This document shows positions 19,505 through 27,499 of a stretch of 60,083 nucleotides of DNA, in pieces; the first letter of the stretch is position 1, and every line of letters begins with the position of its first letter. The DNA is from an uncultured Candidatus Saccharibacteria bacterium. Lineage in GTDB: Bacteria > Patescibacteriota > Dojkabacteria > B142 > JAFGMG01. The DNA lies in the NCBI GenBank assembly GCA_964391325.1, contig CAYMJM010000004.1:1-60083 (forward strand), in the 5' to 3' direction. Below the pieces are notes generated by a model that worked only from the letters and a program-made list of their open reading frames with translations, ran no database searches and was not told where the DNA came from. Made by a program: the position numbers and the translations under genes.

Positions 19505-22500
19505 TTAATTAATTATTAAGTAGTCAAAATTAACAGTTTGAATAGCGGGGTCCTGGATTTCAATCATAAATCCCGATCCCATTTTTGTGACTTTGTATAC
19601 AACAAACTGATCTGGAGTAACTAAAATCCTAGATCTGTCTGTAATAGTTGAGTTCTCTACCTCCTCCTTTACTTCGCCTATTTTGATTGAAACCTGCCCG
19701 ATGCTACCATTCTCCGTTTCCTTCAGGTTGATTTTTCCTTCTGCACTTATCTTAAATAACTCATTGTCACCTTCATCTATTAGAATAAAAGCCTGATCCC
19801 GTCTAGAAAGCTGAAGTATCAAATCATCCGTCGAAGTATACCTTTTTGCAACAATTTTACCGCCAATATTGACATCAGACTTGATCAATAATTGAGAATC
19901 AGTAATCTCAAACAAATTATCACCGTTAGCAATGTTATAGTTTTCTATTGCCAAAGCATCCTCAGTACTATTTAACTTTTCGTAATATTGAGTAGGAACA
20001 TAGCCAGAGTCAACGTACATAAGTATCCTTCCTGTCTTGTACTCAGAGACCTGCTGCTTATGCTCTACTATTTCATCTACCTTTTCTATAACCTCTAAAG
20101 TCTCTTTCTCCTGCAATTCACCAGTCTCCACGAGTTTTCCGACCAATTCTTGCGCTTGCTCTTTATTCTCTTCAATTTTAGCCTGAACTAGATTGCTATC
20201 TCCTTCCACTCTTCCACTAAAGCTTTCCATAGCCCTTCCTATAATTATTCCACCTTCCGTGGCTTTCATAGCATAACCAGGTGTGCTACTTGGAGTCAGA
20301 TAGTCCCCTCTATTAATTGAACCATTCTCATCTGTCACCTTAACAGGGACTCTCCCAACTAAAGCAACTGGTCTGCCATTTTCTTTATGTTCTTTCCAGT
20401 CTTTTAGGTATAGTCCTGGATCAGTTGAGATTACTCCAATGGCTCCATCGTCATAAACAGTATCAGTCTTTTCCACAACAAGGTTAGCCCCGGAATTCTT
20501 TAATTTCACTACATCTCCCGCACCAATTCCCAGATCGTCTACTTCATATTCTTCAGCCAGATCAAAGCTACTGATTGTTACATCTTTCCCATAGTATTTG
20601 TAAGCATATATGTCTTTCCAGGCCTTGGTTGCGGTTCCTAAGTTAGAGTCATTATCTACATAGGGACTTAAACCATCTGATACATAAAATGTACTATCAA
20701 AGCCATCCCAAATGAAAAACTCTGAACTGGCAGTCCCAGTTCCCCCAAAGTAAATACCTCTATTACTGTACATGAGATTTGGATCATCGCCATAGTTAAA
20801 GTATAGATCACTGGTCATTCTTATGCTATTAGTTTCTACTCCTGTAGCTTTAATAAACCCAACAGCAGCAGGCGATATACTATATTCAGTAAATTCTTGA
20901 TTAGAATATCCAAATATAAGAGAACCACTGCTGAAATAATGTCCGGCTAATGTCTTTTCAATTTGTCCAAACGGTTCATACCGTGTAAAATCCAACAATT
21001 TATCAGATTCAAGAATTAAACTCGTAGATGATAAGGACCTTCCGACCAGAATATCCCGCTGTATATAACGATATGTGGGAGAAGCGATAATATCATAAAT
21101 GTCTCCACGAGAATAAGTATTTGCATCCGCAACATAATAATCCGCATTCGGAGTAAGCCCTGAAAGATTCTCTACCAGTCCATTCACTACTATCTCTATA
21201 GATTCCCCGGATACGGCAGAATTTTTAGCAATACCACTAAAAGCTTCCGTTGTATAATAATGTACTGAGGCTCTCCCCCTGGTATTAAGTATCATATAAC
21301 GTGCACCGTCTCCTAAGCTAAGCAAAGTAGAAGCATTCGCCCTAGAACCTTCGGAAAGGATTCTTGACTTCGAGAATTGCCAATATTCATCTCCGACCTT
21401 CTCACCGATACTAATATATAACCCTGTAGCTTCGCTGTGCCGTTGAGTAGCAAAAACGACTTTATTGTTAGAAACAGCAGCAGCAATTATACCCTTCTGC
21501 GGATCAAAAGCTGGACCATACGGACTCAATGGCTGCTCAGTAAAATTCTTAAAACTTATACTACTATAGCCCCCCTCAAAAATATTAATTTTTTGTCCTG
21601 ATATGACCCAGAATTCTGGGTATGTCGAGTGTCCATATACACCGTAACGAGGTACGGTCAATATACTTAAATCCAACCCTCCAGCTACCTCGCTCTCTGT
21701 TCCACTCAGGGTTATTGTTGTCCCATCTAAAGAATACGTTTGTGTTACCGGCGGATTACTATACTCATTACTAATTGAAGCTATTAGCCCTCTAAATATT
21801 CGGTTACTGGCAGATCCTCCTGAAACGTATCCTGACACAGCGGTCATCTTGGATGGAGTTGCTTTATAAACAACTTCACTGCCAAATGTTATAGTACTGT
21901 CAACAACAGAACCTACAATAGCTGTCGCAAAAGATGAGTTTGCTTCATCCAAATATGACACAACAAATCTGGATCCTTCAGGATCTGCTACTAAGTCAAT
22001 ATCCTCTGCGTTACCTAAATTAAACATCTGTGCATCACCAAAGATAATGGAGTCAGCACTTATATCGCCTATGATAGCCATTCCTTGAGAGGTAGTTTTG
22101 TCATTATAGGCAATAACAATTTTATTAGTAGCTAATTTGGCCACTTTGATATTATCTACATCATTAGAACTAAATGTATGGGCATCTCCATAATTTACTA
22201 ATGTTTCTATAACCTCACCCAATACTACCTTTCCTTCACCTTTATCAATACTACTATCATACTCAGAATAAGCTATAACTATGCGGTCTGTATCTAACAA
22301 GTCAGAGTCAACTACCCTTGGATATGTACTTACAGCTGGATGAAAAGGAGACCCTCCACTATTTACATCCGGGAGAGTACCTTTTATTGTGACCGGCCCT
22401 GTTCTGGTTACAAGATCCCCCGCAGCTATCTCATATCCAGGTGCAACAACGGACTGAATTGTCTGCTGTTCATTTTTATTAATTTTGTATTCTTCACCAG

Positions 22501-27499: not shown

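Follow-up and report, generated by a model that had tools for sequence, protein, structure and literature searches.

The window analyzed here is the complete 60,083-nucleotide (nt) contig CAYMJM010000004.1 of an uncultured Candidatus Saccharibacteria bacterium. On its minus strand (19505..27499) lies an open reading frame (ORF) with an ATG start that, according to the ORF list and its translation, encodes a protein of 2664 amino acids (aa). A first-pass annotation, made from the letters of the sequence, had described the product as an exported adhesin resembling phage tail fibres, and we refer to it as the fibre protein. Near-identical 2664-aa copies were found in three other assemblies, one residue apart each (D869G, G1192E), which shows that the population is near-clonal at the fibre locus and that hypervariation is not apparent. 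These assemblies are independent; the two substitutions fall at nt ~24893-24895 and nt ~23924-23926, respectively.

The start codon of a second gene, encoding a small membrane protein, lies 1 nt past the fibre stop codon, and a terminator-like hairpin closes the unit (Table 1). The two genes would be co-transcribed; promoter-like sites were not enriched over shuffled sequences.

Table 1. Features of the fibre locus and their positions in the window
Feature	Position (nt)	Strand	Basis
Fibre gene, 2664 aa	19505..27499	-	ORF list and translation
Putative signal peptide or signal anchor, aa 1-31	27407..27499	-	Read from sequence
N-terminal beta-rich domain, aa 29-187; remote resemblance to the N-domain of Bdellovibrio MAT fibres; contains two Cys pairs	26939..27415	-	NCBIfam NF053851
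Mosaic stalk, aa 186-1600: six L[WF]T repeats, three YWG-CX6C, two SILHAL, and three VGIG...P...L modules	22700..26944	-	Motif scan, self-BLAST
L[WF]T repeat 1, aa 233-307	26579..26803	-	Motif scan, self-BLAST
L[WF]T repeat 2, aa 571-645	25565..25789	-	Motif scan, self-BLAST
L[WF]T repeat 3, aa 812-886	24842..25066	-	Motif scan, self-BLAST
L[WF]T repeat 4, aa 1027-1101	24197..24421	-	Motif scan, self-BLAST
L[WF]T repeat 5, aa 1317-1391	23327..23551	-	Motif scan, self-BLAST
L[WF]T repeat 6, aa 1493-1567	22799..23023	-	Motif scan, self-BLAST
Head, aa 1640-2165: predicted beta-propeller of ~55-aa repeats	21005..22582	-	AlphaFold2 (AF2), Foldseek
Neck, aa 2166-2312, ending in NLG....W.DIY junction motif	20564..21004	-	Sequence; low AF2 confidence where modelled
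D-L-A-E, aa 2313-2316: predicted autocleavage site F2312|D2313, catalytic Glu2316	20552..20563	-	Family profile versus phi29 gp12
Peptidase_G2-like beta-tulip chaperone domain, aa 2309-2431	20207..20575	-	Profiles, AF2, Foldseek
Helical linker, aa 2436-2479, possible coiled coil	20063..20194	-	AF2 helices, predicted local distance difference test (pLDDT) 80-90
Terminal beta (CT) domain, aa 2565-2664, ending ...NFDYLIIN	19508..19807	-	AF2 pLDDT ~90
Small membrane protein, 114 aa, one transmembrane helix and ~65-aa domain	19159..19503	-	Linkage counts
Terminator-like hairpin: 15-bp stem, eight GC pairs, T run; closes the fibre and small-protein unit	19107..19139	-	Hairpin analysis

Internal repeats were assessed by BLAST of 80-aa fragments against the fibre protein itself. 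The six ~75-aa L[WF]T repeats showed pairwise identities of 35-59% (E 1e-10 to 7e-28) and begin at nt 26803, 25789, 25066, 24421, 23551, and 23023, where the first-pass annotation had placed them near 26806, 25793, 25070, 24425, 23555, and 23027. Its other modules (three NLYWG..C....C, two SILHAL, three VGIG motifs, a beta-rich head, and a DLAE...GRVPVKV domain) were likewise all found where it had put them: [ND]LYWG at aa 384, 1001, and 1296 (nt 26350, 24499, and 23614), with C-x6-C after each; SILHAL at aa 218 and 556; [NR]VGIG...P at aa 647, 747, and 1424; DLAE at aa 2313 (nt 20563); and RVPVK at aa 2383. The L[WF]T repeats are embedded in larger duplicated modules, namely SILHAL plus repeat, the YWG-CX6C module, and VGIG plus repeat, so that aa 186-310 match 523-649, aa 322-430 match both 940-1047 and 1239-1323, and aa 722-840 match 1392-1521. 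For one of the stalk modules, identities of 55-66% were seen with a section of a Bacteroidota "tail fiber domain-containing protein", whose C-terminus is an S74 domain, and with a cyanobacterial protein. The L[WF]T repeat profile gave chance-level matches only against PDB, which leaves the stalk without a solved-structure relative by sequence. A junction motif, [TN]LG....[RK]W.D[LI]Y, precedes both the head (aa 1575-1590, nt ~22730-22775) and the chaperone (aa 2287-2300, nt ~20600-20640), and it is also found in orthologues. A sub-threshold match to Pfam End_tail_spike (aa 1534-1594, E 5e-4) covers its first copy.

The C-terminal 515 aa retrieved 120 relatives, a few of them with a precomputed PF11962 annotation; PF05658 occurs in a few that are only distantly related to the chaperone domain. 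Among 43 aligned domain copies, the D, A, and E of DLAE were invariant, and GRVPVKV and GD.LT.S..PG.AMKA nearly so. Searched against PDB, the profile of this 43-copy family matched the phi29 pre-neck appendage protein gp12 (E 0.0014) in register with its S691|D692 cleavage site, aligning D2313 and E2316 of the fibre with D692 and E695 of gp12. The last residue of mature gp12 is 691 (PMC6542822). Chain 3gqh, the separate C-terminal fragment of gp12, starts at the aligned Asp (DFAEYF), and the "pre-mature" gp12 structure 3suc has Gln at the position aligned to E2316. Taken individually, 28 of these 43 copies matched PF11962 (best E 6.5e-8).

The AF2 model of aa 2265-2664 (mean pLDDT 78.5) contains the chaperone as a beta domain at aa ~2309-2431 with pLDDT above 90. 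Foldseek matched this domain in PDB to 3suc (E 4.5e-3, probability 1.0, 173 columns) and to phage beta-tulip cement proteins (E 3e-4), and in BFVD to viral tail-fibre and "preneck appendage" models (E 1e-11 to 1e-10, 25-34% identity). PHROG 19602, "tail fiber protein", was matched at E 6e-9. Given the profile register, the PF11962 matches of the relatives, and the fold, we accept the assignment to a Peptidase_G2-type chaperone that the first-pass annotation had proposed; it is an assignment by remote homology, with a predicted cut at F2312|D2313. A scan of the C-terminal 515 aa at E<=10 did not bring up PF13884 (S74), and the SDxxxK motif is also absent. No anchor or head/stalk Pfam domains of YadA-like trimeric autotransporters were found in the fibre protein.

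The chaperone pattern had at least 596 confirmed matches in one-genome-per-species data. For a comparison of cellular and viral copies, we took the 80 best genome loci, mostly from Patescibacteria, and 80 viral loci. The DxAE motif was retained in 176 of 181 copies (91/96 genome, 85/85 viral). In all 85 viral copies, 119-131 aa separate the DxAE Asp from the stop, so the domain is the extreme C-terminus; in cellular copies this distance has a median of 474 aa and is above 300 aa in 82 of 87. The fibre itself has 352 aa between D2313 and the stop codon. This shows that a C-terminal extension beyond the chaperone is a feature of the cellular relatives, unlike the phages. The extension ends in what we call the C-terminal (CT) domain, the last ~100 aa, with a conserved ending ...F-x-Y-x-I-I-N. 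It was present in 51 of the 80 genome loci and in none of the 80 viral loci, and it had no match in Pfam or NCBIfam. A coiled coil followed by a terminal beta domain had been suggested for this region; the secondary structure agrees, with two AF2 helices at aa 2436-2479 followed by an all-beta region, and the coiled coil itself is a possibility.

Homologues of the small membrane protein adjoin G2-type fibre genes in 26 of the 80 genome loci (0/80 viral). A reciprocal test used 80 metagenome loci (L161-L240) seeded solely by the small protein, with an alignment of closer relatives. An upstream CT-domain ORF was found in 44 of these 80 loci, always on the same strand (44/44) and usually directly adjacent; where at least 2.5 kb of upstream sequence was available, the figure was 31 of 40. 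A G2-like domain was also seen in 26 of these CT-domain ORFs. Since this domain is not always present, the linkage is chiefly between the CT domain and the small membrane protein, which itself matched no known family in Pfam, NCBIfam, or PHROGs. As far as the sequences tell, the CT domain paired with the small membrane protein is a feature without a match in these three collections.

The N-terminus consists of MRTAFGVK with two basic residues, then 16 hydrophobic residues, and then SRPVSA|VS, and it reads as a Sec signal or signal anchor. A hydrophobic N-terminal helix likewise opens the proteins of relatives. All ten cysteines fall into five close pairs (56/66, 107/126, 393/400, 1010/1017, and 1305/1312), which is consistent with an exported protein. 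The domain that follows (aa 29-187) matched NCBIfam NF053851, Bdello_MAT_N, at E 1.1e-4 and with 22 bits (cut-off 60), from position 9 to 151 of the 162-position profile. Seven of eight relatives matched this model as well (E 2e-10 to 2e-3), all under the cut-off and always directly after the hydrophobic helix. The match in the fibre spans nearly the full model. Together, these sub-threshold matches make remote kinship with the N-domain of Bdellovibrio MAT fibres likely. The first-pass comparison with Bdellovibrio, offered as an analogy, therefore goes beyond analogy through these sub-threshold matches. The domain is shared with a 1340-aa orthologue, L002 (E 8e-24); a word-based search with it returned no matches.

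Housekeeping genes lie on both sides of the fibre gene. Its flanks and the contig ends encode DnaB, L31, RF1, PrmC, HtrA, CtpA, SSB, YchF, AMP phosphorylase/e2b2, CCA-adding enzyme, DnaX, RseP, S2, TopA, DprA, PBP2, MreB, and LCP. No phage gene was found among the scanned genes of the 60-kb contig, all of which are housekeeping or envelope genes, and an RNA scan gave a single tRNA and nothing else from Rfam. The nearest relatives of the C-terminal domain come from metagenome-assembled genomes (MAGs) labelled Dojkabacteria, Saccharibacteria, and other Patescibacteria. Housekeeping context and relatives together exclude the prophage scenario and identify the organism as a member of the Patescibacteria (Candidate Phyla Radiation, CPR). 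The chromosomal, non-prophage location claimed at first pass is thus confirmed.

Origin in a prophage, or in what is left of a phage, could explain the PHROG tail-fibre match and the tblastn hits to phage tail-fibre genes, but such a reading of the fibre gene is already contradicted and we consider it extremely improbable. The tblastn search, against 50,697 isolated phage genomes, matched only aa 2265-2523 (in Campylobacter CP220-like and Pseudomonas PA5oct-like phages), so that ~6-10% of the fibre protein matches isolated phages; its N-terminus reads as an export signal, housekeeping genes flank it directly, and none of the 80 viral loci has the CT domain or the small partner. The earlier description of the fibre as "domesticated" finds no support in this search, in which the chaperone region is all that isolated phages share with it.

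Other putative surface proteins are encoded nearby. At 27645-30545 (-), 145 nt upstream of the fibre gene, a 966-aa protein has a hydrophobic N-terminal helix and four Laminin_G_3 (ConA-like lectin) domains; it has a partial, sub-cut-off match to the NCBIfam TafC fimbrial model and may be another surface adhesin. Two putative surface proteins, one of 194 aa with a dockerin type I domain and one of 675 aa with CarboxypepD_reg, are encoded at 11578-14176 (+). At 39250-41679 (-), an AMP-phosphorylase-like protein (Glycos_transf_3 + PYNP_C, 501 aa) adjoins a gene of the IF-2B family (ribose-1,5-bisphosphate isomerase-like); AMP phosphorylase and IF-2B form a nucleotide-salvage pair common in CPR genomes. 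Many Patescibacteria-type fibre loci occur in MAGs titled "uncultured Gammaproteobacteria" (e.g., OZ246416.1, 886 kb), and these labels may be wrong.

The head is predicted, with moderate confidence, to be a beta-propeller. Its AF2 model has pLDDT 67 and a predicted template modelling score (pTM) of 0.67, with a confident part at aa ~1740-1890, and its best Foldseek matches are beta-propellers (sialidases, Sec13, WD40; E ~1e-5). A ~55-aa repeat, ...KFVVAY.D..NS.YGTA.VG.VSG..I.FG..., runs through aa 1730-2080 (nt ~21260-22310). It occurs in 2427 cluster representatives at E<=1e-3, often in 5-24 copies per protein, and the head is thus not "unique", as had been stated at first pass; the repeat family matched no Pfam family. 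Many members (proteins P0145-P0293) are ~850 aa long and consist almost wholly of these repeats. In short relatives such as P0211, the head unit has the order "YG.LY.K.DGNLYY.N" lead-in, propeller, and closing "IGIA...GE.V.V..G......L.PG..YY". A weak self-match of aa 2123-2194 to 2388-2462 in the self-BLAST gave rise to the idea of a propeller inserted into a second G2-like beta-tulip; this was rejected at the sequence level (profile-profile probability 2.6%).

The orthologues differ in this part. In L002, the N-domain, chaperone, linker, and CT domain are retained along with a single stalk repeat; the head is built from another repeat, similar by eye to propeller repeats of the SBBP type. The orthologue L001 (more than 2405 aa; 16-7233, Dojkabacteria MAG) has a second DxAE-bearing G2-like domain in the place of the propeller. 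The head swaps expected from the first-pass annotation were therefore observed, and since both orthologues keep the rest and differ in the head, the head is, by these comparisons, the exchangeable part of the fibre.

Alternatively, the protein could be a structural component of the envelope, possibly S-layer-like, or a secreted enzyme whose propeller is sialidase-like, with no part in recognizing another cell: sialidases and glycosidases lead the fold matches of the head, phi29 gp12 and the K1F tailspikes are enzymes (PMC3357383), and the neighbouring genes encode surface proteins (4xLamG, dockerin, CarboxypepD_reg). However, identity to sialidases is ~10%, the sialidase Asp-box (S.D.G..W) is absent from the entire fibre protein, and the propeller match is generic, with WD40, Sec13, and integrin scoring equally; on these grounds a sialidase head was rejected. 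A head that is swapped while the rest is kept is also the pattern typical of specificity determinants, and we regard a role without recognition of other cells as rather improbable.

The interpretation that we favour, and hold to be moderately probable, is that the gene encodes a cell-surface fibre of Patescibacteria, to be grouped broadly with the tail fibres of phages and the MAT fibres of Bdellovibrio. In the proposed mechanism, the chain would be exported by Sec through its N-terminal hydrophobic signal, and the MAT_N-like domain would remain at the cell surface. Three chains would then be brought into register from the C-terminus by the intramolecular chaperone of phi29 gp12 type (Peptidase_G2, beta-tulip); we infer the trimer only from the chaperone family. 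After trimerization, the chaperone would cut F2312|D2313 using E2316, and the mature fibre of ~2300 residues would consist of the mosaic stalk and three distal beta-propeller heads as the exchangeable, ligand-binding part. The CT domain and the small membrane protein would act as a platform on the membrane side, bringing the C-termini together outside the cytoplasm in the absence of ATP and cytoplasmic chaperones.

Several observations weigh against this interpretation. The suggestion that the protein would match PF11962 or PF13884 held for PF11962 in the relatives mentioned above, and failed for PF13884 and for the fibre itself: its own chaperone domain stays below the PF11962 threshold (E 0.026, 14.4 bits, cut-off 25), and the whole protein has no match. 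Direct phmmer searches of PDB with the whole protein and with the C-terminal 515 aa were empty, and direct Pfam scans of segments gave only noise. The Bdello_MAT_N score is far under its curated cut-off (22 versus 60 bits). Binding to a host cell is a proposal, and an epibiont lifestyle is assumed from the phylum. The chaperone is not terminal, with 230 aa (helices and CT domain) beyond it, and no G2-like domain was seen in three long CT-domain ORFs that have the small protein as partner. Finally, 19 of 82 related cellular ORFs hold two or more G2-like copies with DxAE intact, and several DxAE-bearing copies in one ORF are hard to square with maturation by one cut. If every G2-like copy cuts, maturation of such multi-copy relatives would yield several fragments. 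In phi29, gp12 reportedly needs ATP for releasing the cleaved domain (Xiang et al. 2009); ATP is absent outside the cell, so release of this kind could not operate there.

Part of this evidence fits an arrangement with the opposite orientation. The CT domain would be held at the membrane by the small protein, the N-terminal domain would be distal, and the G2-like domain would be a trimerization joint, either uncut or cut but still attached, that is, pre-nicked and breakable. The tight pairing of CT domain and small protein (same strand and upstream in 44/44, and in 31/40 loci with enough upstream sequence), the internal chaperone (median 474 aa after cellular copies versus 119-131 aa in viral ones), the multiple G2-like copies, and an ATP-dependent release that would be inoperable outside the cell all agree with such C-terminal anchoring. 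Against it, the variable head adjoins the C-terminal unit and the conserved MAT_N-like domain lies at the N-terminus, and MAT and phage fibres attach by their conserved N-end; the near-universal conservation of DxAE argues for real catalysis; and an uncleaved N-terminal hydrophobic helix could be the anchor itself. We therefore judge C-terminal anchoring unlikely, though well short of negligible.

We tentatively offer a further and doubtful proposal. The C-terminal unit (G2-like chaperone, linker, and CT domain) and the small membrane protein might constitute an undescribed two-gene module with which Patescibacteria assemble trimeric fibres of phage type outside the cytoplasm, independently of ATP. 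By capturing the CT domains, which are exported last, the membrane protein would nucleate trimerization, and the self-cleaved joint would either release the fibre or stay as a pre-nicked, force-sensitive link. With swappable heads, such a module would be a main determinant of which hosts these epibionts attach to.

Cultivated Patescibacteria are all attached to other microbes, and how they find and bind their hosts is little understood beyond type IV pili (PMC11623550). Giant fibres that are widespread in the phylum, with a MAT-like base, a phage-type chaperone predicted to cleave itself, and interchangeable heads, would be concrete candidates for determinants of host range. The chaperone is known from fibres whose folding takes place in the cytoplasm; in this protein its action would have to follow Sec export, and the CT domain with its small membrane partner suggests a possible answer to how folding could proceed there. 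The beta-tulip autochaperone class and the MAT and phage fibres are already known, and bacterial adhesion relatives had been noted earlier (10.1101/216911; PMC3357383). New here are the CT extension after the chaperone in Patescibacteria and its linkage to a small membrane-protein gene.

Among known systems, phage beta-tulip cement or decoration proteins (Pam3 gp6, BB1, P74-26 gp87) gave the best Foldseek matches to the chaperone domain in PDB, and several relatives of this domain had weak matches to Pfam Phage_cement and XM1_gp53. These are small capsid proteins and no part of fibres, and the likeness is at the fold level only. The coliphage K1F endosialidase and phage T5 pb1 (Peptidase_S74) share the overall plan, which runs from an attachment end through a receptor-binding propeller or beta-helix and a short stalk to a self-cleaving trimerization chaperone at the C-terminus. 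The sub-threshold End_tail_spike match at aa 1534-1594 is a further point in common. In contrast to them, the fibre protein has neither S74 nor SDxxxK, and the fold and chemistry of its chaperone are different.

The D4 domain of phi29 gp12 (MEROPS G2; PF11962; 3gqh, 3suc) is a tandem beta-tulip autochaperone that is cleaved off after folding; chains without D4 aggregate, and it has relatives among "bacterial adhesion proteins" (10.1101/216911; PMC3357383; PMC6542822). The fibre shares with it the beta-tulip fold, as predicted, the D-x-A-E at the domain start, corresponding to the D692/E695 site, and the position of the domain on the C-terminal side of a large beta-rich part for receptor binding; many viral fibres have members of this family. 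The fibre differs in being a cellular protein, probably Sec-exported, in having a domain of ~125 aa versus 163 aa in gp12, in the 230 aa that follow it, and in its P1 residue (F versus S in gp12).

The MAT fibres of Bdellovibrio bacteriovorus (PMC10769870; NF053851) also have a signal peptide (here putative), directly followed by a conserved beta-rich N-domain of ~130 aa (here a putative counterpart, matched below threshold), a long mosaic stalk, and an exchangeable distal module, and they too are encoded by a chromosomal gene of a bacterium that lives on other bacteria, a lifestyle assumed for the fibre organism from its phylum. Their N-domain is proposed to be cell-proximal at the predator surface, with variable C-terminal tips, some bearing S74 and some not, distal (PMC10769870). 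The MAT "capping loop", V-G-G/N-pi-x-x-P-x-x-x-L, resembles the three [NR]VGIGxxxPxxxL motifs of the fibre, which have one extra residue between VG and P. A CT domain with a small membrane-protein partner was not found among the MAT features read in PMC10769870. The fibre further differs in having a G2-type and not an S74 chaperone, in being 2.5-3 times longer, and in belonging to monoderm-type Patescibacteria as opposed to a diderm predator. Extrapolating from the ~550 Å model of the 922-aa Bd3182 (PMC10769870), and only so, its length would be ~100-150 nm. These comparisons make the protein a candidate for a MAT-like, phage-fibre-like adhesin with a G2-type instead of an S74-type chaperone.

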